Source: Chloroflexota bacterium (GTDB lineage Bacteria > Chloroflexota > Dehalococcoidia > UBA2979). Taken from it: DNA of 64,000 bases. The notes under the pieces were generated by a model. It did no database searches and had not been told where the DNA came from. It was given only the letters and a program-made list of their open reading frames with translations. The DNA lies in the NCBI GenBank assembly GCA_027592645.1, contig JAQCKI010000001.1, positions 38,312 through 102,311 of the forward strand, in the 5' to 3' direction. Positions 27,047 to 51,256 of the stretch are shown here, in pieces. Within the stretch, counting starts at the first letter, position 1. Each line of letters opens with the position of its first letter. A program made the translations under genes and the position numbers.

Positions 27047-29884
27047 ATGGGATTTCACGACGACCGAGGCAACCTGGGCCCCCCGCCGGAGCCGTTCCGG
27101 ATCAACGAGGGGCGCGAGATGCGGTCGCCTGTCCCGCTGCGCTGGCTCGCACTGGCGGCGATCGCCGTCGTCCTGTACGTCACGCTCAACGTACTGAAGT
27201 CGATCTACACCAATGCCATGTGGTTCGACTCCGTTGAGTTCGGCTCGGTCTACCGGACCGTGGTCATGTCCCGGATCACGCTCTTCGCCATCGGCGCGGT
27301 GGTCGCCGGGGTGGTCATTGGCCTGAACGTCATGATCGCCCGACGGCTCGCCCCCGCCGGCTTCGAGGCGACGCTGATCGAGGAGATCGACCCGGAGGCC
27401 GTCCGCAAGGTGCTGCTGGTGGTGCTGATCGCCGCCACGCTCTTCCTCGCGGTGATCTTCGGCAGCGTGGCCGCGGGCGCATGGGAGACCGTGCTGCTCT
27501 GGATGAATGGCGTGGAGTTCGGGCGCACGGACGTGCAGTTCAACCGCGACATCTCCTTCTACATGTTCGATCTGCCCGCCTACCAGTTCTTCCAGTCCTG
27601 GCTGCTGGGCCTGGTGATCGTCTCCGCCATCGGTGCGGGCGGCATCTACGCCCTCTCGATGTCCTTCACGCGCGGTGAAATCCGCATCGAGGGGGCCATG
27701 CGGACGCACCTGTCCGTCCTCGGCGGTCTCGCATTCCTGCTGATCGCGGCGAACACCTACCTGGGCATCTTTGGGCTCGTGAACTCGCCCACGGGCATCG
27801 TCTATGGCGCCACGTACACGGATGTGAACGCGCGCCTTCCCGTCGCCTACGTGCTGGTGGCGCTGGCCGCCTTTGCTGGCCTCGCCACGATCGCCAACGC
27901 CTTCCTGACCCGCGATGGGTTCCGGGTGCCGATCTTCGCCGTGGGCCTCTGGGTGGTCGGTGGTCTGCTCGGCGGGGTGATCTACCCCGGCACGGTGCAG
28001 GCGCTGCAGGTCGAGCCGAACGAACGCCTCCGCGAGGAGCAGTACATCTCCCGAAACATCGAAGCGACGCGGTTCGCGTGGGGTCTGGAAGACATCGTGG
28101 AGACGCGGTACCCCGCGAACCCGGTGGTGACGCAGGCGGACTTCGACGCGAACCCGAAGACGATCGAGAACGTCCGCCTGCTGGACCCGCGCCCGCTGCG
28201 CGACACCGTCAACCAGATCCAGGCGATCCGGCAGTTCTACCAGTTCACCGACATCGACGTTGACCGGTATGTCATCGACGGCGAAGAGCGCCAGGTGATG
28301 ATCGCGACCCGAGAGATGGACATCAGCCGTGTCCAGGACCGCAACTGGACGCGTGAGCGGCTGCAGTTGACGCACGGCTTCGGCGCCGTGATTGCGCCCG
28401 TGAACGAAGTGCTGCCCGCAGGCCTGCCGCGGCTGATCACGGCGGACATCCCGCCGCGCTCCGAGGTGTTGCCGATCACGACCGAAGGCGCGCGCATCTA
28501 CTTCGGTGAGCTGACCAACCATTACGTCATCGCCAACACCAGCGAGCCGCAGTTTGACTACCCGTTGGGCGAAGGCAACGCCGAAACGTCCTACACGGAA
28601 GACCGTGGGATCACGTTGAACTCACTCGCCCGTCGCATCGCACTGGCGTGGGAACTGGGCGACGCGAACCTGCTGATCTCCGGGCAGATCAACTCTGACT
28701 CGCGGCTGCTGTGGCGGCGCAACATCGTGGAGCGCGTCAGCGGGGTGGCCCCGTTCCTGATCATCGATTCCGATCCGTACGCGGTGGTGCTGGACGAGCG
28801 CATCCACTGGTTCATGACGGGTTACACCGTCTCGTCGTCGTTCCCGTACTCGCAGCCCTCGGCGGGGGTGAACTACATCCGCGATGCGGTGAAGATCACC
28901 GTGGACGCCCAGACGGGCGACATGGTGTTCTACCTGATCGCAGAGAACGACCCGGTGGCAACCACGTGGGCGAAGATCTTCCCGGACCTGTTCACGCCCA
29001 ACTCGGAGATGCCGGACGAGGTGCGTCGCCACCTCCGTTACCCGGAGGACATCTTCAAGATCCAGTCGCAGTTGTACCTCCGCTACCACATCACCAACCC
29101 CGACGTGTTCTTCATCGGCGAAGACGTGTGGAACATCCCCACGGAGCGCGTCGGATCGCTTGATGTGATTGTGGAGCCGTATTACGTCACGCTGACGCTG
29201 CCCGAAGAGGAGGACGGCGTGGCGCTCGATGAGGACATCGAGTTCGTCCTGATCATGCCGTTCACGCCGCGCAACCGGCAGAACACCGTGGCATGGTTGG
29301 CCGGCCGATCAGACGGTGAGCACTACGGTGCAATGCGCGCGTATCGCTTCCCCACGGACACGCTGGTGTACGGCCCCGCTCAGATCGAGGCTCGTATCGA
29401 CCAGAACCCGGGCATCTCGCAGCAGTTCAGCCTCTGGAACCAATCCGGCTCCGAGGTGATTCGCGGCAACCTCCTGATGATCCCGGTGGGCTCGTCGTTC
29501 CTGTTCGTGGAGCCGATCTACCTGCAGGCAGAGAACTCGCGGTTGCCGGAACTGGTGCGCGTGATTGTGGCCAACGGCAACGCACTGGCGATGGAGCGGA
29601 CGCTGCCGCACGCGCTGGACGTGGTGATGGGACGGCGGGCTTCGTCGCTGCCGAACGTGACCACGCAGACCAGCGGCGACCCGCTGAACCCGGTGCCAGG
29701 GCCGCTTCCGGATGCGACGCCGACGCCGATCATCACAGCCACACCGCAACCGCTGCCGACAGGTGACCTGGGCCTGCTGCTGGATCAGGCCCAACAGGCC
29801 TCCGACGCAACTCAGGCCGAACTGAACCGGCTGCGCGCACTGCTGGAGGCAATCCAGGTGCAACTGGAGCAACAGACGCCATAG
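27047..29884 (+). CDS. UPF0182 family large membrane protein.
   Basis: 945 aa. The N-terminal TM region has the UPF0182 signature NAMWFDSVEFGSVYRTVVMSRITLF and a large extracytoplasmic domain. It is inserted between argB and argD. Confidence 0.7.
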   Translation: MGFHDDRGNLGPPPEPFRINEGREMRSPVPLRWLALAAIAVVLYVTLNVLKSIYTNAMWFDSVEFGSVYRTVVMSRITLFAIGAVVAGVVIGLNVMIARRLAPAGFEATLIEEIDPEAVRKVLLVVLIAATLFLAVIFGSVAAGAWETVLLWMNGVEFGRTDVQFNRDISFYMFDLPAYQFFQSWLLGLVIVSAIGAGGIYALSMSFTRGEIRIEGAMRTHLSVLGGLAFLLIAANTYLGIFGLVNSPTGIVYGATYTDVNARLPVAYVLVALAAFAGLATIANAFLTRDGFRVPIFAVGLWVVGGLLGGVIYPGTVQALQVEPNERLREEQYISRNIEATRFAWGLEDIVETRYPANPVVTQADFDANPKTIENVRLLDPRPLRDTVNQIQAIRQFYQFTDIDVDRYVIDGEERQVMIATREMDISRVQDRNWTRERLQLTHGFGAVIAPVNEVLPAGLPRLITADIPPRSEVLPITTEGARIYFGELTNHYVIANTSEPQFDYPLGEGNAETSYTEDRGITLNSLARRIALAWELGDANLLISGQINSDSRLLWRRNIVERVSGVAPFLIIDSDPYAVVLDERIHWFMTGYTVSSSFPYSQPSAGVNYIRDAVKITVDAQTGDMVFYLIAENDPVATTWAKIFPDLFTPNSEMPDEVRRHLRYPEDIFKIQSQLYLRYHITNPDVFFIGEDVWNIPTERVGSLDVIVEPYYVTLTLPEEEDGVALDEDIEFVLIMPFTPRNRQNTVAWLAGRSDGEHYGAMRAYRFPTDTLVYGPAQIEARIDQNPGISQQFSLWNQSGSEVIRGNLLMIPVGSSFLFVEPIYLQAENSRLPELVRVIVANGNALAMERTLPHALDVVMGRRASSLPNVTTQTSGDPLNPVPGPLPDATPTPIITATPQPLPTGDLGLLLDQAQQASDATQAELNRLRALLEAIQVQLEQQTP

Positions 29885-38223: not shown

Positions 38224-38897
38224 TGCCTGCGATCCAGATCGCCCCCAGCATCCTGACCGCCGACTTCGGCCGGCTCGCCGAGCAGGTGCGCGAGGCGGAG
38301 GCGGGTGGCTGTGACCTCTGGCATCTGGACGTGATGGACGGGCACTTCGTCCCACCGCTGTCGTTCGGCCGCGAGGTGATCGCGGCGGTGCGGGCCGCCT
38401 CGGACGGGCGGTTCATCGAGGCGCACCTGATGGTGGAGCGCCCGGGCGAGCAGTTCGCGGACATGGCCGCGGCCGGCGCGCAGCGGCTGATCTTCCACTA
38501 CGAGGCGGCGGGCAACCTCGACCGTGCGCGTGAACACATCGGCGCGGCGCGCGCGCTCGGCTGCCAGGTGGGGCTCGCGATCAACCCGGAGACGGCCGTG
38601 CGCGACATCGCGCCGCTGCTGGCCGAACTGGACGAGGTCACCGTGATGCTGATCCGCCCCGGCTGGGGCGGCCAGGCGATGCGGCCCGATCTGCTGACGA
38701 AGGTCACGGACCTCGCCATGCGCGTGCGGGCCGAGGGCGTCGCGCTGCAGATCGAGGTCGATGGCGGCGTGAAGGCTCACAACGCGCACTCGTGCGCGGC
38801 GGCAGGTGCCACGATCCTGGTCGCCGGCTCCGCCGTCTTCAATGCGGAGCAGACGCCACAGGCCGCCCTCGCGGAGTTGCGCGGCGCGATCGGGTAA
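38223..38897 (+). CDS. rpe: Ribulose-phosphate 3-epimerase.
   Basis: IAPSILTADFGRLAEQV...LHLDVMDGHFVPPLSFG...HLMV...VDGGV. Confidence 0.85.
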   Translation: MPAIQIAPSILTADFGRLAEQVREAEAGGCDLWHLDVMDGHFVPPLSFGREVIAAVRAASDGRFIEAHLMVERPGEQFADMAAAGAQRLIFHYEAAGNLDRAREHIGAARALGCQVGLAINPETAVRDIAPLLAELDEVTVMLIRPGWGGQAMRPDLLTKVTDLAMRVRAEGVALQIEVDGGVKAHNAHSCAAAGATILVAGSAVFNAEQTPQAALAELRGAIG

Positions 38898-42650: not shown

Positions 42651-43517
42651 ATGACCGTACGCATTGTCACCGACTCCACATCCGACCTGACGGCGGAGCG
42701 CGCCCGGGAACTCGGCGTCACCGTCGTACCCCTGAGCGTCCTGTTCGGCGAGGAGGCGCTGCTGGACGGCGTCGACATCACGGCCGAGCAGTTCTTCCGC
42801 CGCCTGCCCCGTGAGACGGCGATGCCCACCACCGCCCAGCCTTCGGCCGGTGCGTTCAAGATGGCCTACGAGGCGCTGATCACCGAGGGCGCCACGGCGA
42901 TCGTCTCGTGCCACCTCTCGGCGGCGCTCTCCGGCACGCTGGAGTCGGCCCGACAGGGCGCGGAGGGCCTCTCCGTCCCGGTGCTGTTCGTTGATTCGAA
43001 GCAGGTGTCGCTGGGCCTCGGTGTCGGTGTGATGGAGGCGGCACGCGCGGCGCAGGCCGGCGCCACCGCCGAGCAGGTAGCAGCCGTTGCGACGGACGTG
43101 TTCCGCCGCACGCACAGCTACATCACGCTGGACACGCTGGAGTACCTGCGGCGCGGCGGCCGGATGAGCCGTGGGCGTGAGGTGCTGGGCACGCTGCTGA
43201 ACGTGAAGCCGGTGCTGGAGATCAAGGACGGCCTGGTGGAGGCGATCGGCAAGATCCGCACCAAGCAGAAGGCGATCGAGGATCTCCTGAACCGCTGCTC
43301 GGCGCTGCGGCCGGTGCAGTACACCTTCGCGGTCCACGCGACGACGCCGGACGAACTCGCATACATCGATGACCGGATGCGCGGCCTTGCGCCGGAGGCG
43401 CCGTTCTACTCGGGCCGGATCGGTCCCGTGATCGGCGTGCACGGTGGCCCGGGCACCGTGGGCGCAGGCGTGGTCACCGCACCGGACGAGCACTCCCCCG
43501 CCTTCCTTCCGACGTGA
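42651..43517 (+). CDS. DegV family fatty-acid-binding protein.
   Basis: MTVRIVTDSTSDLTAERARELGVTVVPLSV... the classic DegV N-terminus. The 41922 start in the ORF track is a false extension. Confidence 0.85.
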   Translation: MTVRIVTDSTSDLTAERARELGVTVVPLSVLFGEEALLDGVDITAEQFFRRLPRETAMPTTAQPSAGAFKMAYEALITEGATAIVSCHLSAALSGTLESARQGAEGLSVPVLFVDSKQVSLGLGVGVMEAARAAQAGATAEQVAAVATDVFRRTHSYITLDTLEYLRRGGRMSRGREVLGTLLNVKPVLEIKDGLVEAIGKIRTKQKAIEDLLNRCSALRPVQYTFAVHATTPDELAYIDDRMRGLAPEAPFYSGRIGPVIGVHGGPGTVGAGVVTAPDEHSPAFLPT

Positions 43518-46111
43518 CCGCCGACTTCCCACGGCTGAGGCTCACCCTCGAGCGGGAGCTGGAGGCGGGTGCGCGCGACCTCACGGAGCCGGACGGCCTC
43601 GACGCGCTGTTGCGTGCGCAGGCGCGCGACGAGGCACCGGGGTCGCCGCTGCTGCGGATGATCGCGGCACTCCCCCCGACCGGGTACGGCTCGCTGGCGC
43701 CGGGCGAACGCGCGGCATGGCTGCGGCGCGCGCTTGCGACGGTGCGCCGAGAACTGGCGCTGGAGGACGAACTCCAGCCTGCCACCCTGCCCGTACGCGG
43801 CGAAGCGACGCCGCCCGCGCGTAAGCCTCCGGCAAAGCGTCGAGCACCACGCGTGGCGACCGAGCAGGAGATGCGCGACGCCGGCGAGGCACCTCGGGCG
43901 CGCCCGGCATCGAAGGCGAGCGGGGCCGGCTCGGCATCCGCGCGGAAGGTGGCGCCCGGCGCGGCCGGGCTGGATCTGCCGATCGAGCGCGCCGGGACGG
44001 GGATGCGCGGCACCAGCATCGAGAAGCTGCACCGCCTCGGGATCCGCACGGTCGGCGACGCGCTGCGGCACTACCCGTTCCGCCACCTGGACTTCGCCAG
44101 CACGATCCCGATCGCGGCGCTGCGCCCCGGCGTGGACGCCACCGTGCGCGGGCGCATCGATGTCTCACGCATCGTGCCGATGGGCCGCGGCGGACGGTTG
44201 AAGGCGACCGAGGTGTGGATCTCGGACGGCATGGCGCGCCTGAAGGCGACCTGGTTCAACCAGCCGTTCATGGCCCGCGCGCTGCCCGTGGGCGCGGAGG
44301 TCGCTCTGCTCGGCAAGGTCTCGGTGTTCCGCGGCCAGTTGGGCTTCCAGAGCCCCGAGTACGAACGGCTGGACCGCGCCGGCACGGTGACGCTGCGCCT
44401 GGTGCCGGTCTATCACCTGACGGAAGGCCTGCCGCAGCGCACGCTGCGCGGGCTGATCGAGAAGCTGCTGGAGGAGTACGGCGACCGCATCGAAGACCCG
44501 CTGCCGGCGGCGATCCGCCAGCGCCTCGGGCTGCTCGGCCTGCAGGAGGCGACCCGCCAGTGCCACTACCCGGACTCGGAGGCGCAACTGCGCGAGGCGC
44601 AGCGGCGGCTGGCGTTCGATGAACTGCTGGCGATCCAGATTGGCGTGCAGACGCGCAAGCGGGAGTGGCAGCAGAGCGGCGACGCACCCGCCGTCACCGA
44701 CCACGCGGTCGCCGAGGGCTTCCTCGGCACGCTGCCGTTCGCTCTCACCGGGGCGCAGCGTCGCGTGCTGAGCGAAGTCCGCGAGGACATCGCGCTCACC
44801 CGGCCGATGTCGCGACTACTCGAGGGTGACGTGGGGTCAGGCAAGACCGTGGTGGCGCTGGCGGCGATGCTCTCGTTCGTCGCCGCCGGCTACCAGGCGG
44901 TGCTGATGGCGCCCACCGAGGTGCTGGCAGAGCAGCACTACCGCACGCTCTGCAAGGTGCTGTCGGGCGAATCGGAGCCGCCGCTGAACGGCCTCGTCAA
45001 CGTGCCGGGAATGCCGCTGCCGGTGAAGGTGGTGATGCTCAGCGGCTCCACGCTCGCGAAGCAGCGCCGCGAGGCGGTTGCGGCGATCAAGCACGGCGGC
45101 GCGCACCTCGTGGTCGGCACGCACGCGCTGATCCAGGAGGGCGTGGACTACCACCGCCTGGGTCTCGCCGTGGTGGATGAGCAGCACCGCTTCGGCGTGA
45201 TCCAGCGTGGCCAGTTGCGCCGCAAGGGCATCGAATCCAGCGCCGCGACCGAGGCCGGCACCTCCGTCACACCGCACCTGCTGGCGATGTCCGCGACGCC
45301 GATCCCGCGCTCGCTGGCGCTGACGCTGTACGGCGACCTGGACCTCTCCGTGATCGACGAGATGCCGCCGGGCCGCACGCCGATCGCCACGCGCTACCTG
45401 ACGCCGATCCAGCGGCGCGAGGCGTTCCACCACGTCCGCCAGGAGGTCGTCGCGGGCCGGCAGGCGTTCGTGATCTGCCCGCTGGTGGAAGGCTCGGACG
45501 CCGTGCAGTCGCGCGCGGCGACGGAGGAGGTCGAACGGCTGCGCACCGAGGAGTTCCCTGACCTCGCCGACCGCATCCTGCTGCTGCACGGCCGGATGGC
45601 GGCGAAGGAGAAGGACCGCGTGATGAAGGCGTTCGCCGCGCACGAGGCGGACATCCTGGTCTCCACCGCCGTGGTGGAGGTGGGCATCGACGTGCCGAAC
45701 GCGACGGTGATGGTGATCGAAGGCGCGGATCGCTTCGGCCTGGCGCAGTTGCACCAATTCCGCGGCCGCGTCGGGCGCGGCGAGCACCCCTCGACGTGCT
45801 TCCTGCTCGCCGACGACCCCACGCCGGAGGCGGAGGAGCGGCTGTCCGTGCTCGAGCGCACCAACGATGGCTTCGCGCTGGCGGAGGCGGACCTGCAACT
45901 GCGCGGCCCCGGCGACCTGTTCGGCACCGCGCAGTCGGGCCTCGCCACGCTGCGCGTCGCCTCGCTGCTGGACACGCGCCTGATCGACTCCGCCCGCCGC
46001 GAAGCCGAGTCACTCCTCGATGCCGACCCCGACCTCGCCCTCCCCGAGCATCGCGCCCTCCGCTACGCGGTGGCAGATCGTGCCGCGGCGGTCAGCGTGG
46101 AGGTGCATTAG
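43514..46111 (+). CDS. recG: ATP-dependent DNA helicase RecG.
   Basis: Wedge/OB N-domain; helicase motifs LEGDVGSGKTVVA, DEQHRFGV, the TRG motif, and the C-terminal domain. 865 aa. Confidence 0.9.
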   Translation: MTADFPRLRLTLERELEAGARDLTEPDGLDALLRAQARDEAPGSPLLRMIAALPPTGYGSLAPGERAAWLRRALATVRRELALEDELQPATLPVRGEATPPARKPPAKRRAPRVATEQEMRDAGEAPRARPASKASGAGSASARKVAPGAAGLDLPIERAGTGMRGTSIEKLHRLGIRTVGDALRHYPFRHLDFASTIPIAALRPGVDATVRGRIDVSRIVPMGRGGRLKATEVWISDGMARLKATWFNQPFMARALPVGAEVALLGKVSVFRGQLGFQSPEYERLDRAGTVTLRLVPVYHLTEGLPQRTLRGLIEKLLEEYGDRIEDPLPAAIRQRLGLLGLQEATRQCHYPDSEAQLREAQRRLAFDELLAIQIGVQTRKREWQQSGDAPAVTDHAVAEGFLGTLPFALTGAQRRVLSEVREDIALTRPMSRLLEGDVGSGKTVVALAAMLSFVAAGYQAVLMAPTEVLAEQHYRTLCKVLSGESEPPLNGLVNVPGMPLPVKVVMLSGSTLAKQRREAVAAIKHGGAHLVVGTHALIQEGVDYHRLGLAVVDEQHRFGVIQRGQLRRKGIESSAATEAGTSVTPHLLAMSATPIPRSLALTLYGDLDLSVIDEMPPGRTPIATRYLTPIQRREAFHHVRQEVVAGRQAFVICPLVEGSDAVQSRAATEEVERLRTEEFPDLADRILLLHGRMAAKEKDRVMKAFAAHEADILVSTAVVEVGIDVPNATVMVIEGADRFGLAQLHQFRGRVGRGEHPSTCFLLADDPTPEAEERLSVLERTNDGFALAEADLQLRGPGDLFGTAQSGLATLRVASLLDTRLIDSARREAESLLDADPDLALPEHRALRYAVADRAAAVSVEVH

Positions 46112-46236
46112 GGGCGGGGCATTCGGCATGACCCCGCGGACCCCGGGCCCGCAACCTGGGTGCTTCGGCCGGGCGGCGCTCTTCAGCCGGTAGGCGGCGA
46201 CCTGACGACCTCTAGAATGATCACCGATGGGCCCGC

Positions 46237-48324
46237 GTGAACGAATGGAACTCGGAGTCGATGCCCGACACTACCTCCGTCCCCATCACAACGCGAGGCT
46301 TCAGCCTCGCTCCGTGGCAACTTGCCGCGCTTGCCGCGTGGCAGCGGGGCGATGGTCTGCTCCCCTATCGAGGGACTCTGGAAATCTTCACTGGTGGGGG
46401 AAAGACCCTTATCGCGCTAGAGGCGGCGGCGGAGGTATCGCATGGCACCCCTGAGCTGAAGATTGCCGTTGTCGTACCGACCCAGGCCCTCGCGGAGCAA
46501 TGGGCGGCGGCAATCGCGCGTCACACGAATCTTGCCTCTCGGGAGATCGGGATACTCGGCGGAGGTAAGAAGGGTTCATTCCAGAAGCATCGCGTTGTGG
46601 TCGCCGTGTTGAATACGGCCTCTAAGCGGCTACCCACGATGGCGGCGACCGCGCAGCCACTGATGTTGATCGTGGATGAGGCTCATCGAGCGGGTGCGAA
46701 GACATTCTCTGGTGTACTCCGGACGCCGGCTGCCTTTCGACTCGGCCTCTCCGCCACGCCCGACCGGGAAGAGATCGATGAAGACGGCGAGCCCATCGCG
46801 TTTGATGAACAGCTCGTCGGTCGCAGCCTTGGTCGGGTTGTCTTTCGATTCAGTTTGAAGGAAGCGCGCGAGGCTGGGTGGTTACCAGCCTTCGAAATCC
46901 ATCATCATGGCGTTCGTCTAACTGAGGACGAACGCCGTCGCTACGACGAGATTTCGCGCCGTGTGGATGACCTCGCAGACCGGCTCCGGGCGGCTGGGCT
47001 AGCACCCGAACGGGCCATGCGGATGCACCCGAACCGCGATGATCTGCTCCAGATGGTGACTGCTTATGTGGGCGCTACGTCACAACGTAAGGACTTTCTA
47101 TATCGAGCCACCGAACGCGCGCGAGTTACTACGTCGCTAGTGACCACGATAATGAGTCTGTCTGACCGACGGATACTCCTGTTCGGGGAGCGCGTCACGG
47201 AGGCTGAGTCCATAGCATCGTCGCTCCGGAAGGGGCTGGGGGACGAGCAGGTAGCTATCGAACACGCTGAGCTCAGGCCCTCGGAGCGCCGACAGGCGCT
47301 CGATGACTTCCGAGAAGGACGTAAGTCAGTGTTGGTCTCGGTGAAGGCTCTCGTGGAGGGGATCGATGTCCCTGAGGCGGATGTAGGAATAGCCGTCGCA
47401 TCATCGGCTGCCGTAAGACAGCGGATTCAGTCGTTGGGTCGTATCCTTCGTCGCCGTTTTGATGATGTCGAGAAGCATGCAGAGATGCACGTTATTTATG
47501 TCAATGACACTGTCGATGATCTGATCTACAGCAAGGAGGATTGGAGCGACCTAACTGGAGAGGGTAACAACCACTATTGGCTGTGGCCGCTCGACCCCAC
47601 CCTTCCCCCTGAGCTTCAGTCTGGGCCGCCCAGAACCCCAAAACCAACGGAGCAACAGGAGTGGGAGCGGCTACAGCGCGAGAATCACGACCTCCCCACC
47701 TTGTGGTTTGGCCTGCCGTCAGGACAAGAGTATTCCGTAGACACGCTGGGCACGGTGACTAACCAGTCCAACACTACGATCGGAAACCCCCAGGGAGTCG
47801 CCGAAATGGTGAGTTCGGTCCGAGGGAAGTCTGGCGGTCGCTTTCGAGTCACCCCCCAGTATCGAGCCGTACTGGTTCGAGCTGACGGCGGCGAGGACCT
47901 GTGGCTGGCTGGTTGGTTGAAGGAGCCCTTCACAGCCCGTGAAGAGCAACACTTGGCCGACTTCGACATCGCGCAACTGCGCCCCGGCGACCCCTATCCG
48001 GGCCCAACGGACGAGATCAACGGCAGCTTCCGGGTCAGCCAGCGCAACCGAGGCACGCTTGAGCGCGAGCTTCGAACGACCACAAGCCGTGGTAAGGAAT
48101 TTGCGACCGAAAGTGGCCAAGGATCACGGGCGACGAACGCGCGGGCTGTCCTGGACGCTTGGAGGGCATCTGGGGTTGGAAAGGGCTTGCTAGTCAGGTG
48201 CAATTCCCTGTGGGACGCCTACTATGTCGTCGGCGGGCAGCCACTCTTCCTGGCGCGTATCCCGGAAGGCCTTGCTTGGCCGTCAGAATCCGACGAGAGG
48301 GAGGAAACTCCCTCACCGCTCTAG
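46237..48324 (+). CDS. SF2 (DEAH/ResIII-type) helicase with an about 270-aa uncharacterised C-terminal domain; lower GC than the host.
   Basis: Walker A IFTGGGKT, DEAH box LIVDEAHRAG, motif III LGLSATPD, motif VI QRIQSLGRILRR. The C-terminal domain carries a GGR-x-R/Y-V/I...DGG repeat. A GGAG RBS favours a start at 46261. Confidence 0.8.
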   Translation: MNEWNSESMPDTTSVPITTRGFSLAPWQLAALAAWQRGDGLLPYRGTLEIFTGGGKTLIALEAAAEVSHGTPELKIAVVVPTQALAEQWAAAIARHTNLASREIGILGGGKKGSFQKHRVVVAVLNTASKRLPTMAATAQPLMLIVDEAHRAGAKTFSGVLRTPAAFRLGLSATPDREEIDEDGEPIAFDEQLVGRSLGRVVFRFSLKEAREAGWLPAFEIHHHGVRLTEDERRRYDEISRRVDDLADRLRAAGLAPERAMRMHPNRDDLLQMVTAYVGATSQRKDFLYRATERARVTTSLVTTIMSLSDRRILLFGERVTEAESIASSLRKGLGDEQVAIEHAELRPSERRQALDDFREGRKSVLVSVKALVEGIDVPEADVGIAVASSAAVRQRIQSLGRILRRRFDDVEKHAEMHVIYVNDTVDDLIYSKEDWSDLTGEGNNHYWLWPLDPTLPPELQSGPPRTPKPTEQQEWERLQRENHDLPTLWFGLPSGQEYSVDTLGTVTNQSNTTIGNPQGVAEMVSSVRGKSGGRFRVTPQYRAVLVRADGGEDLWLAGWLKEPFTAREEQHLADFDIAQLRPGDPYPGPTDEINGSFRVSQRNRGTLERELRTTTSRGKEFATESGQGSRATNARAVLDAWRASGVGKGLLVRCNSLWDAYYVVGGQPLFLARIPEGLAWPSESDEREETPSPL

Positions 48325-48334
48325 GACGGTTCTC

Positions 48335-48994
48335 ATGGCCCTGCCTTACCCCGGCAATCTCCCACGAAACGTAAACCACGACGCGAAATACTCAGTCGTG
48401 CACGACAGTGATGGCGACATGCGGGTGCGACTCCTCTACACGCTCTCGGAAGGTGAGCGAGCGCTCCTTTCGACGGACAAGCATCCCAAGCTCGTGGCCA
48501 TGGTGAACGAGGTGAAGGACGAGATCCACGGGGCGCCCGGTGGAGCGTTCTACATCAACGAGTATCGACAAGTCATCGTCCCCACGAACACAGCCTATTT
48601 CTTCGCCGGTACCTACGAAACCTTGTTGGAGTTCGAGTTCGAGGGCAAGGTTATTGGGCCCAAAGCGAGCAGCACCGTGACGCCTGGGGACACGTGGATC
48701 GGACCCCATGTTGGAATTCCCTACACGCTTGCGGCGGGCGGCCGTGATTTCTACTACGAAGTAGAGACTCGCCCGTCGGTAACGAAGCGTGTGACCCTCT
48801 CCGCAGCAGTCGGTGCGCCCGCCGCGGCCGCTTTGGCAAGGCGACTTGCCGAAGTCAAGGGCAGCCAGGGCGGGCGCGTCTACATCAACGAGGCACGTGA
48901 ATTTTTCGCCCCGATCGAAGTGGGAGGGGCGTGGCAGCAACGGTATCTCGGCCCTCTCGGTAAGGACGCTTGGTTCCCGCAGCCGAGCGTCTAG
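48335..48994 (+). CDS. Hypothetical protein with an internal duplication related to the helicase C-terminal domain.
   Basis: 219 aa with repeats GGAFYINEYRQVIVP... and GGRVYINEAREFFAPIEVGG. It lies 10 nt after the helicase stop and has the same atypical composition. Confidence 0.5.
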   Translation: MALPYPGNLPRNVNHDAKYSVVHDSDGDMRVRLLYTLSEGERALLSTDKHPKLVAMVNEVKDEIHGAPGGAFYINEYRQVIVPTNTAYFFAGTYETLLEFEFEGKVIGPKASSTVTPGDTWIGPHVGIPYTLAAGGRDFYYEVETRPSVTKRVTLSAAVGAPAAAALARRLAEVKGSQGGRVYINEAREFFAPIEVGGAWQQRYLGPLGKDAWFPQPSV

Positions 48995-49005
48995 TGGCGT
49001 AGCCG

Positions 49006-49344
49006 TCACCCCAGCGGCACGAACGCGCAGACGCCCTCCTGGAGAATCGTCGAGGTGTGGCCGCGGCCGGTGGCGTCTTCGGCCTGGAGCACGTCGCCGG
49101 GCTCCATGATCACCTTCGAGCCGTCCCAGCAGCCGATCTGGACGCGGGCGGTGAGGTAGACGACGTACTGGCGGCGCGGGGCCGGGTGGTAGTCGAGCGC
49201 GGTGCCGCCCTTGCGGATGCGGAACTGGATCGACTCCGCAGCCTCCACCTCCGCCGCGGGGCGGTCGCCATCGCCGAAGGCGATCGGGTGCTCCTCGAAG
49301 TGTGACTCGCCGTCGTCGCCGGTGTAGATGCGGATGCGCTTCAT
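49006..49344 (-). CDS. Cupin-domain protein.
   Basis: Small beta-barrel (about 112 aa) ...GTALDYHPAPRRQYVVYLTARVQIGCWDGSKVIMEPGDVL... Confidence 0.6.
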   Translation of the reverse strand: MKRIRIYTGDDGESHFEEHPIAFGDGDRPAAEVEAAESIQFRIRKGGTALDYHPAPRRQYVVYLTARVQIGCWDGSKVIMEPGDVLQAEDATGRGHTSTILQEGVCAFVPLG

Positions 49345-49420
49345 CGCGTGGCCTCCCTCTCCCGGCCCGCACTCGTGGCGGGCCGCCCGAGGCGCATCCT
49401 ACGCGGGCGGGGAAGGCCTC

Positions 49421-49445
49421 GGGCGGTCCGAGGGCGGTCCGAGTG
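49421..49445. repeat. Tandem 11-bp direct repeat GGGCGGTCCGA x2 (plus a partial third copy) in the 247-nt argS upstream region.
   Basis: Seen directly and cross-checked against the ORF-track translation of the overlapping spurious ORF. Confidence 0.5.
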
Positions 49446-49591
49446 CGCTCGGGCGGCGCCCCGCGTCGCCTCGGGGGAGGGGGCGCGATACACTGAGGCC
49501 TCGCACGCCCCGAGTAGCGGTGCGAGACGGGTGGCCCGCGGAAGCGGGCCGCATGCGTCCGCCGCACACACACGGAGAGAGGCCCGGGCCG

Positions 49592-51256
49592 GTGATTCGA
49601 GACGAGATCGTCGCGCTGGTGGAAGGTGCCCTGGCGGCCGCCCAGGCGGCTGGCGACCTGCCGCAGTTCGCCGCCCCGCCCGTGACGACCGAGCATCCCG
49701 CCCGCCCCGAGCACGGCGACTTCTCCGCGAACCTGCCGCTGCGCATCCAGGGCCTGGCGCGGATGAAGGCGATCGAGGTCGCCGAGGCGCTCCGCCGCCA
49801 CGTCCCACCGCATCCGGCCGTGGAGCGCGTCACCGTGGCGCCGCCCGGCTTCCTGAACCTGTACCTAGCCCCCGGCTGGGTCGCTGCCCAGACCACCGCG
49901 ATCCTCGACGCCGGCGAGGCGTACGGGTCGCTCTCGATGGGCGCGGGCCGCTCCGTGCAGATCGAGTACGTCAGCGCGAACCCGACCGGCCCGATCCACG
50001 TGGGCAACGGCCGAGGCGCGGCGATCGGCTCCACGCTGGCGGCGGTGATGCGCGCCGCCGGGTACGACGTCCAGCAGGAGTACTACATCAACGACGCCGG
50101 GACGCAGGTCGCGATCTTCGGGCGCACGCTCTACTCGCGGTACCAGCAGCTGTTCGGCCGCGAGGTGGAGATCCCGGAGAACGGCTACCCCGGCGACTAC
50201 GTCATCGGCATCGCGGAGGCGCTGAAGGCGGCGCACGGCGACCGCTTCCTGCGCCCCGAGGGCGAAGAGGGCGACCCCGAACTTGGCCACCTCGGCCTGC
50301 AGCGGATGGTCGACTCGATTCGCGACGATCTCGGCGGCATCGGCGTCGAGTACGACCGCTGGTTCTCCGAGCGCTCGCTGATGGACGAGGGTGGCCCGTA
50401 CGGCACCGTGATGGGGCTGCTGAAGCAGCAGAACTACATCGCGGAGCGTGACGGGGCGACGTGGTTCACCTCCAGCGACCTCGGTGAGTCCAAGGACAAC
50501 GTGCTGATCCGCACGGACGGCCAGCCGACGTACTACGCGACGGACATCGCCTACCACTACGACAAGTTCATCACGCGCGGCTTCGACCGCGTGATCGACA
50601 TCTGGGGCGCGGACCACCAGGGTCACGTCTCCCGCGTGAAGGCGGCCGTGGCGGCCATCGGCGGGAACCCGGACGCGCTCGACGTGCTGTTGTTCCAGCT
50701 GGTGACGTTGAGGCGGGGCGCCCAGGTGGTGCCGCTCTCCAAGCGCGCCGGCGAGATCGTCACACTGCGGGACGTGGTGGAGGAGGTGGGCGCGGACGCG
50801 ACCCGCTTCTTCTTCCTCGCGATCGGTGCGAACCAGACGATGGACTTCGACCTCGACCTCGCGAAGAAGCAGTCGGACGAGAACCCCGTCTACTACGTCC
50901 AATACGGTCACGCCCGCATCTCCAGCATCCTGGCAAAGGCGGTCGAGGAAGGCCTGTCCTCGGCCGGCGCGGACACGGCGCTGCTCGTCCACCCGGCGGA
51001 GCAGGCGCTGCTGCGCGAACTGCTGCTGCTGCCCGAAGTGATCGAGAAGGTCGTGAACGAACTCGCGCCGCACCACCTGCCGCACTACGCGCAGTCGCTG
51101 GCGAGCGCGTTCCACGGCTTCTACACGCAGTGCCGCGTGATCCAGGCGGACGAGCCGGACCTGACCAAGGCGCGGCTTCTGCTGCTGGAAGCGACCCGCG
51201 TGGTGCTCGCACACACGCTCGGTCTGATGGGGATCAGCGCGCCCGTCTCGATGTAG
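49592..51256 (+). CDS. argS: Arginine--tRNA ligase.
   Basis: HIGH-class motif YVSANPTGPIHVGNGRGA, the KMSK-like region and the anticodon-binding C-terminus. GTG at 49592 is preceded by GGAGAGAGG; the ATG at 49553 is an alternative start. Confidence 0.9.
   Translation: MIRDEIVALVEGALAAAQAAGDLPQFAAPPVTTEHPARPEHGDFSANLPLRIQGLARMKAIEVAEALRRHVPPHPAVERVTVAPPGFLNLYLAPGWVAAQTTAILDAGEAYGSLSMGAGRSVQIEYVSANPTGPIHVGNGRGAAIGSTLAAVMRAAGYDVQQEYYINDAGTQVAIFGRTLYSRYQQLFGREVEIPENGYPGDYVIGIAEALKAAHGDRFLRPEGEEGDPELGHLGLQRMVDSIRDDLGGIGVEYDRWFSERSLMDEGGPYGTVMGLLKQQNYIAERDGATWFTSSDLGESKDNVLIRTDGQPTYYATDIAYHYDKFITRGFDRVIDIWGADHQGHVSRVKAAVAAIGGNPDALDVLLFQLVTLRRGAQVVPLSKRAGEIVTLRDVVEEVGADATRFFFLAIGANQTMDFDLDLAKKQSDENPVYYVQYGHARISSILAKAVEEGLSSAGADTALLVHPAEQALLRELLLLPEVIEKVVNELAPHHLPHYAQSLASAFHGFYTQCRVIQADEPDLTKARLLLLEATRVVLAHTLGLMGISAPVSM

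Follow-up and report, generated by a model that had tools for sequence, protein, structure and literature searches.

The 64,000-nucleotide (nt) stretch analysed here, referred to as the window (contig JAQCKI010000001.1 of a Chloroflexota bacterium, positions 38,312 to 102,311), carries an island of two genes just downstream of recG. The first encodes a superfamily 2 (SF2) helicase with an XPB-type motor, and the second encodes a protein of 219 amino acids, here called X, of which the helicase carries a degenerate copy at its own C-terminus. We infer that the pair is, on balance, an autonomous and so far unannotated helicase-centred module of the defence type, acting against phages or mobile elements, and the island in the window is the minimal two-gene form of a module that is widespread. 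The features of the two genes are as follows, all on the plus strand.

46237 to 48324, plus strand: gene 1, open reading frame (ORF) for an XPB-like SF2 helicase whose C-terminal domain is X-like; read from GTG 46237 it has 695 amino acids
46303 to 47538, plus strand: helicase motor core, amino acids 23-434 (Pfam domain limits), with Walker A TGGGKT, DEAH, SAT followed by R-E-E, and motif VI QRIQSLGRILRR
47719 to 48270, plus strand: X-like C-terminal domain of the helicase, amino acids 495-678, a degenerate paralog of gene 2 (hhalign, AlphaFold)
48335 to 48994, plus strand: gene 2, protein X, 219 amino acids, an internally duplicated unannotated family
48539 to 48583, plus strand: X repeat motif 1, GGAFYINEYRQVIVP, amino acids 69-83, with G70, F72, Y73, E76, V80, V82 and P83 invariant
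48869 to 48913, plus strand: X repeat motif 2, GGRVYINEAREFFAP, amino acids 179-193, with G180, Y183, N185, E186, F191 and P193 invariant

The family alignment of X has a mean column identity of 54 %, from which two motifs stand out, GGAFYINE..VLVP and GGRIYINE..FFAP. Comparison of the N-terminal and C-terminal halves by hhalign gives a probability of 93.7 % and an expectation value (E) of 1.9e-7 over the GGxxYINE...P hairpin, with motif 1 paired to motif 2, and the DNA itself contains a 34-nt direct repeat (D1) at 48549 and 48879, with a spacing of 330 nt. The AlphaFold model of X (predicted local distance difference test score, pLDDT, 93.4; predicted template modelling score, pTM, 0.90) runs twice through the order strand-strand-strand-helix-strand-strand-strand. 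These data show X to be a tandem duplication of that unit, each copy marked by one of two invariant GGxxYINE...P motifs. No relative of X was found in Pfam or NCBIfam at E <= 1, in PADLOC or in PHROGs, and a profile search of all sequences in the PDB returned nothing at E <= 10. Foldseek lists nothing but sliding clamps for X, with E values of 0.01-0.09 and a template modelling (TM) score of about 0.17, which is no real superposition, and a sliding clamp fold (PCNA or beta clamp) was accordingly rejected; an ATP-grasp or ligase nucleotidyltransferase fold was a further candidate. A word-indexed search recovered 279 homologs of X, and an exhaustive search with hidden Markov models recovered 477 clusters at 50 % identity.

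The relationship between X and the tail of the helicase emerges at the level of sequence profiles. The X family (alignment A1) matches the tail (alignment A2) in hhalign with a probability of 94 % and E of 1.2e-7 over 175 columns, and an independent tail alignment, cut from full-length helicases, matches the X family with E of 5e-7. The controls were negative, with E values of 0.2-0.4 for the X family against reversed tail sequences and 0.18 against the helicase core. A pairwise BLASTP comparison of the tail with X is not significant (E 0.06), so profiles are needed to detect the relationship. Alignment A2 came from a tail-only search that returned no more than 21 short proteins, which were used only as an alignment; judging by protein length and contig size, many of them probably stem from gene calls that were cut short or split. 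The AlphaFold model of the tail (pLDDT 87) contains the same strand-strand-strand-helix-strand-strand-strand unit twice, as in X. The profile comparisons thus show the C-terminal ~185 amino acids of the helicase as a diverged, motif-degenerate copy of X, with homology that spans the whole domain and not just a short repeat. A preliminary description of this DNA, made from its letters alone, had proposed that gene 2 is internally duplicated and that it looks like a separately encoded version of the accessory domain of the helicase; the first proposal is confirmed and the second has statistical support.

Judged by its sequence, gene 1 encodes an ATPase-competent XPB-type SF2 translocase. It matches the Pfam families ResIII, DEAD, Helicase_C and ERCC3_RAD25_C, and across 33 homologs (alignment A5) the residues of Walker A, DExH, SAT and motif VI do not vary, which argues that the motor is under selection as an ATPase. 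The nearest solved sequences are those of archaeal XPB (PDB 6p4f, 5tnu and 2fwr, E ~2e-23). In PADLOC the core is matched best by PbeA, over the helicase part of that profile (E 1e-55, positions 241-629 of 672), and in NCBIfam by TIGR04095, dnd_restrict_1 (E 2.5e-44, 152 bits against a cut-off of 600 bits). Against the XPB equivalog NF045503 the protein scores 80.4 bits, below the family threshold of 610 bits. The helicase domain begins at amino acids 12-23, and XPB chains align only from their own residues 53-83 onward; the N-terminal damage-recognition domain of XPB is absent ahead of the motor, as is the HKD nuclease part of PbeA, only 11 amino acids preceding the PbeA match. Motif III is followed through as SATPDREE, with R177 invariant and E179 nearly so, and these residues form R-E-E, not R-E-D, at what is presumably the site of the XPB "RED" motif. 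The SF2 motifs listed in the preliminary description are therefore all present, and the housekeeping Lhr/HelY identity that it had named as a refuting outcome is rejected in favour of an XPB/PbeA-like core with neither the N-terminal domain of XPB nor the nuclease domain of PbeA. At E <= 1e-30 the helicase family numbers at least 581 proteins, each of ~670-710 amino acids and labelled only as DEAD/DEAH or superfamily II helicases.

Evidence that the two genes form a unit comes from their linkage in other genomes, a scan of which (one genome per species) yielded 44 loci from at least 10 phyla. The helicase gene adjoins the X gene in 38 of the 44: 37 have it immediately upstream in the same orientation, and one (L006) has it on the opposite strand. 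Five of the six remaining loci lack upstream DNA, so that 38 of 39 testable loci are linked. The sole locus with ample upstream DNA but no helicase (L047, 10001-10558) has an X gene that is N-terminally truncated (residues 44-218) and for that reason is probably a decaying remnant. In about 20 loci, mainly outside Actinomycetota, a third gene lies between the helicase and X genes; its product, X', is related both to X (E 2e-33) and to the helicase tail (E 8e-8) and has a degenerate second motif. The distribution is patchy and takes in Actinomycetota, Chloroflexota, Acidobacteriota, Planctomycetota, Verrucomicrobiota, Lentisphaeria, Saccharibacteria, Bacillota, Thermodesulfovibrio, Syntrophobacter and Arenicellales.

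Furthermore, X occurs in a series of natural fusions: to an ATPase (X + AAA_21/AAA_15), to a PLD-like MIT_C domain, to NERD and protein kinase domains (NERD + protein kinase + X), to an Upf1-like helicase with an MTES_1575 nuclease (Upf1-like helicase + MTES_1575 nuclease + X), and to a methylase, HIRAN and STAND ATPase. Wherever flanking DNA suffices, the fused X still lies beside the XPB-like helicase. The gene order is helicase, X', X-MIT_C in L130 and L131; helicase fragment, X', X-AAA_21 in L138; and NERD-kinase-X followed by the helicase in L132. On a short contig (L129) the end of an X' gene precedes X-MIT_C. In the region L136:426-6556, X is joined to HIRAN, a STAND-type ATPase and part of an N6-methylase in a protein of 1520 amino acids. 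An X-like fragment precedes this fusion and an nSTAND2 gene comes after it, on a contig too short to show a helicase if there were one.

The genes around the module differ from locus to locus, are mostly defence genes, and leave the helicase-X pair as the only constant. The neighbours include a type IV restriction enzyme gene with a ScoMcrA-like HNH gene, an HKD-Snf2 gene with a type IIG methyltransferase gene, and genes for a DrmA/YprA-like helicase, a GajB-like UvrD and a TmtA-like protein. In L001 and L012 type IV restriction enzyme and HNH genes lie downstream of the pair. Downstream of the module in L002/L005, L004/L009 and L039, and on its strand, come genes for a 1551-amino-acid protein (a TmtA-like N-terminus joined to an SF2 helicase), for a UvrD helicase that resembles GajB and for one that resembles DrmA/YprA. 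The array as a whole (L002:3540-11478, L005:3454-13097, L009:10698-20650, L039:10841-16099) resembles ARMADA or DISARM, yet differs from their published gene sets. The neighbourhood was compared with a control by collecting ORFs of at least 250 amino acids, a limit chosen because greedy ORF calling is noisy in high-GC loci. In 35 loci, 90 such ORFs lie no more than 5 kb from the module, and at E <= 1e-10 they matched 234 PADLOC families, among them HmaA, HmaB, BrxL, DrmA, DrmD and type IV restriction enzyme families. The control, 119 ORFs from the surroundings of an unrelated gene in 26 loci, matched 3 generic families. The contrast is only qualitative, because families rather than genes were counted and the control loci come from different organisms. 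Taken operationally, as enrichment of known defence families relative to a control, the neighbourhoods of the module are defence islands.

In actinobacterial loci, a gene for an XRE-type helix-turn-helix (HTH) protein lies directly upstream of the helicase gene on the same strand, with a PemK/MazF-like gene diverging from it (L007:6902-7953, with equivalents in L008, L010, L011, L017, L029, L031, L033, L035 and L048, and a rearranged form in L006). These two genes could provide the module with a regulator and a toxin; the copy in the window has neither.

The setting of the pair in the window is that of acquired cargo, and the segment and its flanks are as follows.

46115 to 49002, no strand assigned: cargo segment of foreign composition, bounded by the stop codons of recG and of the convergent cupin-like gene
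43514 to 46111, plus strand: recG, the conserved left flank, a host gene outside the module (Pfam RecG_wedge and RecG_dom3_C; GC content at third codon positions, GC3, 0.92)
49006 to 49344, minus strand: small convergent gene ("cupin"), the conserved right flank, a host gene (86-87 % identical in L049-L052; GC3 0.95)

The segment has a GC content of 0.607, which is the minimum of the window, against 0.689 for the window as a whole (standard deviation 0.020 among windows of equal length). GC3 is 0.66 in gene 1 and 0.73 in gene 2, against 0.92 in recG, 0.95 in the cupin-like gene and 0.92 in argS, and the codons AAT, ATA, TTA, TTT and ACT, all absent from four flanking genes, reach 1-13 per 1000 codons in the island. 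A second and far milder GC dip (0.635) in the window, at 27047-29884, coincides with an ORF of 945 amino acids for a multi-pass membrane protein and looks like an ordinary host gene.

Both genes of the island are intact and conserve the motifs of their families. The NCBI call for the identical protein from a metagenome-assembled genome has 687 amino acids, which fits a start at ATG 46261 with GGAG 5 nt upstream, and this start is more likely than GTG 46237 with its 695 amino acids. Gene 2 begins 10 nt past the gene 1 stop, which is overlapped by an AGGA, and this arrangement suggests translational coupling. Searches of the island region found no tRNA, Rfam match or integrase, and no relaxase or replication initiator is present at the island. 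Repeats at its flanks do not rise above chance level, and there are no terminal repeats of note; a sigma-70-like promoter was not found, and terminator-like sites are no commoner than in shuffled sequences. Searches of Pfam, PADLOC and NCBIfam found no nuclease, methylase or toxin domain in the island proteins.

The host site was compared in four metagenomic relatives (L049-L052), whose RecG proteins are 91-95 % identical to that of the window and whose cupin-like proteins are 86-87 % identical. DNA homology to the window stops at 46102-46114 on the left and at 49003-49006 on the right, and between the recG and cupin stop codons each relative carries a different low-GC insert of 0.83-1.1 kb (L049:543-1375, L050:705-1812, L051:816-1912, L052:777-1857), with a GC content of 0.61-0.64 against 0.72 in the flanks. 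These inserts are unrelated to the cargo of the window and to one another; the one in L050 encodes a TacA-like antitoxin and a GNAT toxin, and those in L051 and L052 encode unannotated proteins with hydrophobic stretches. Because homology ends sharply at both stop codons and each relative holds a different insert, the recG/cupin junction is a sharply bounded cargo hotspot, in which the helicase-X pair is one of several alternative cargos, and the segment in the window is horizontally acquired cargo that occupies this hypervariable slot. The identical island is present in several assemblies of the same population.

Much of what the preliminary description had said of the site holds: the foreign composition, the two co-oriented genes 10 nt apart, the lack of a nearby tRNA, integrase, methylase or recognisable nuclease, and the supposition that the pair is not fixed at this position in relatives. 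Its account of the flanks stands in part, as FakA/Dak2, recG and argS were identified there, while the "cupin" gene has no match in a Pfam search. The longest argS ORF (642 amino acids from 49328) overlaps the start of that convergent gene (region 49328-49600), and gene calls on identical contigs place the argS start ~264 nt later (554 amino acids).

The module matches no PADLOC system, and it is not described in PADLOC-DB 2.0, Pfam (2025), NCBIfam (2026) or PHROGs, nor in the papers searched on XPB/ERCC3-type defence helicases, MIT_C, Pbe, ARMADA/YprA and new actinobacterial systems. The earlier statement that its gene order matches none of the familiar helicase-containing defence systems is upheld, and co-occurrence of the two genes elsewhere, which had been proposed as a check, proved to be the rule. 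The comparison with known systems is still instructive. Archaeal XPB, encoded beside its partner Bax1, is the closest in sequence to the core of gene 1, which has the SF2 motifs of the XPB family and, at the presumed RED site, an invariant Arg followed by acidic residues. The differences from XPB-Bax1 lie in the equivalog score and the missing N-terminal domain, in a partner with no Bax1 or other Pfam match, in an extra C-terminal helicase domain paralogous to that partner, and in a context of defence islands rather than repair loci. PbeA, from the CxC-ABC/DndE "PbeABCD" systems, joins an HKD nuclease to an SF2 helicase (PMC10853773). Like the module it is defence-associated, it gives the best PADLOC and NCBIfam matches to the core, and some variants of the module have a PLD-like (MIT_C) domain on X. 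Gene 1, however, has no HKD nuclease and scores under the TIGR04095 cut-off, and the window has no CxC ABC ATPase, DndE or phosphorothioate-modification gene, the island being two genes only.

Hachiman (HamA + HamB) follows a similar logic, with an SF2 helicase and one small partner in defence islands. However, HamB models match only marginally (E 6.7e-4), X contains neither DUF1837/HamA nor any other known domain, and Hachiman has no counterpart to the paralogy between partner and helicase tail. The YprA/DrmA-type helicase with DUF1998 that characterizes DISARM, ARMADA and Druantia is absent from the window, and a DrmA-like gene is a variable neighbour of the module elsewhere; the published description of ARMADA (PMC12458937) includes no XPB-like gene. 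What is known, then, is the arrangement of a helicase and a partner in defence islands, and what is new is the partner domain, the paralogy in three states and the fusion series. The heterodimers XPF-ERCC1 and Mus81-Eme1, each of which pairs an active domain with a degenerate paralogous domain, have no sequence or fold relationship to the module and serve as an analogy only. In both cases one product contains a degenerate copy of a domain that is conserved in the partner, and by this analogy the conserved X and the degenerate tail copy suggest a pairing of paralogous domains.

In the mechanism proposed for the module, X would dock on the degenerate X-like domain of the helicase in a pseudo-symmetric contact of paralog with paralog, which would create a complex of motor and recognition or adaptor subunit. 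X would sense an invader-derived cue through its conserved YINE sites, and this signal would permit the motor, an XPB-type translocase of double-strand DNA, to work on foreign DNA. X is assigned the recognition or adaptor role because it is the conserved partner and also the subunit to which effectors become fused. In elaborated versions, the same X subunit would bring in a nuclease, kinase or ATPase effector, whereas in the minimal version of the window the effector would be the motor itself or some unrecognised activity of X. This sensor/adaptor mechanism is a tentative proposal, and is rather more likely to be wrong in its specifics than right.

Several observations weigh against a defence module of this kind. 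No nuclease or other effector can be recognised in the window copy, and its neighbours are not defence genes, its flanks being recG and a housekeeping-type gene. X is acidic to neutral (median isoelectric point 5.8), which does not suggest a simple DNA-binding protein, and the enrichment of defence families among the neighbours is, as stated, qualitative. The module may also have been named somewhere already, and a 2025 screen of actinobacterial systems left out helicases on purpose. The lack of an effector is equally a point for the reading, which we regard as unlikely, that the pair is a non-autonomous accessory or remnant of larger systems, such as the ARMADA- or DISARM-like arrays or the type IV restriction clusters, with an inactive orphan in the window. 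The same-strand TmtA-like SF2, GajB-like UvrD and DrmA/YprA-like genes of L002/L005, L004/L009 and L039, and the type IV restriction enzyme and HNH genes downstream in L001 and L012, would fit such a dependence. However, the adjacent systems differ from locus to locus around a constant helicase-X pair, many loci, including the window, hold the pair alone between unrelated genes, and an orphan does not sit well with two intact, motif-conserving genes or with the recurrence of the identical island in several assemblies.

Proximity to recG and descent of the motor raise another explanation, that of a horizontally acquired accessory pair for DNA repair or recombination, comparable to archaeal XPB-Bax1 and kept beside recG to deal with stalled forks or lesions. 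The nearest solved relatives of the motor are indeed XPB repair helicases, the pair directly follows recG in the window, and it contains no nuclease, methylase or toxin domain that was found. We nevertheless consider a repair function quite improbable: the recG adjacency is not conserved, for relatives hold unrelated cargo there and other genomes place the pair elsewhere, and the patchy distribution across phyla, the foreign composition and the overwhelming presence of defence genes among the neighbours all point away from it. X is also fused to NERD-kinase, PLD-like and ABC-ATPase modules that are typical of conflict systems, and the helicase lacks the XPB N-terminal domain and falls far short of the equivalog cut-off. 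Service to a mobile element, whether as a replication or transfer helicase with its loader, as an addiction module or as an anti-defence device, would agree with the foreign composition, with a variable slot that holds a toxin-antitoxin pair in one relative, and with the HTH and PemK-like toxin genes upstream in actinobacterial loci. It is very unlikely, given that no integrase, relaxase, replication initiator, tRNA or terminal repeats were found at the island and that X homologs are absent from 2.9 million viral contigs, from PHROGs and from the 72,556 plasmids of PLSDB; a phage or plasmid origin was dropped on the same grounds. The defence-type module remains the preferred reading, and the defence-like character first proposed from the letters alone has gained strong contextual support from neighbours and fusions while still being a matter of interpretation.

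Helicase-centred immunity, in the form of Hachiman, DISARM, Druantia, ARMADA and Pbe, is a major part of bacterial immunity whose mechanisms are unclear, and the helicase-X module offers an unusually clean case, with a minimal core of two genes and an accessory domain that has no known fold. This domain comes in three paralogous forms: X is free and conserved, X' is free and diverged, and the helicase tail is fused and degenerate. Natural fusions attach different effectors to one and the same subunit, and a domain-swap series makes the roles of sensor, motor and effector testable. It is a real possibility, if somewhat short of an even chance, that X represents both a new fold and a new class of sensor or adaptor, and that X (with X' in some lineages) and the helicase tail form a pseudo-symmetric complex coupling invader recognition to a motor and to interchangeable effectors (PLD-like, NERD-kinase, ABC-ATPase), in an unnamed defence family spread over more than ten phyla. 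The recG/cupin junction could be mined for further systems, and naming the family would improve the annotation of many genomes, because its 477 clusters are at present labelled only "hypothetical protein" or "DEAD/DEAH box helicase".

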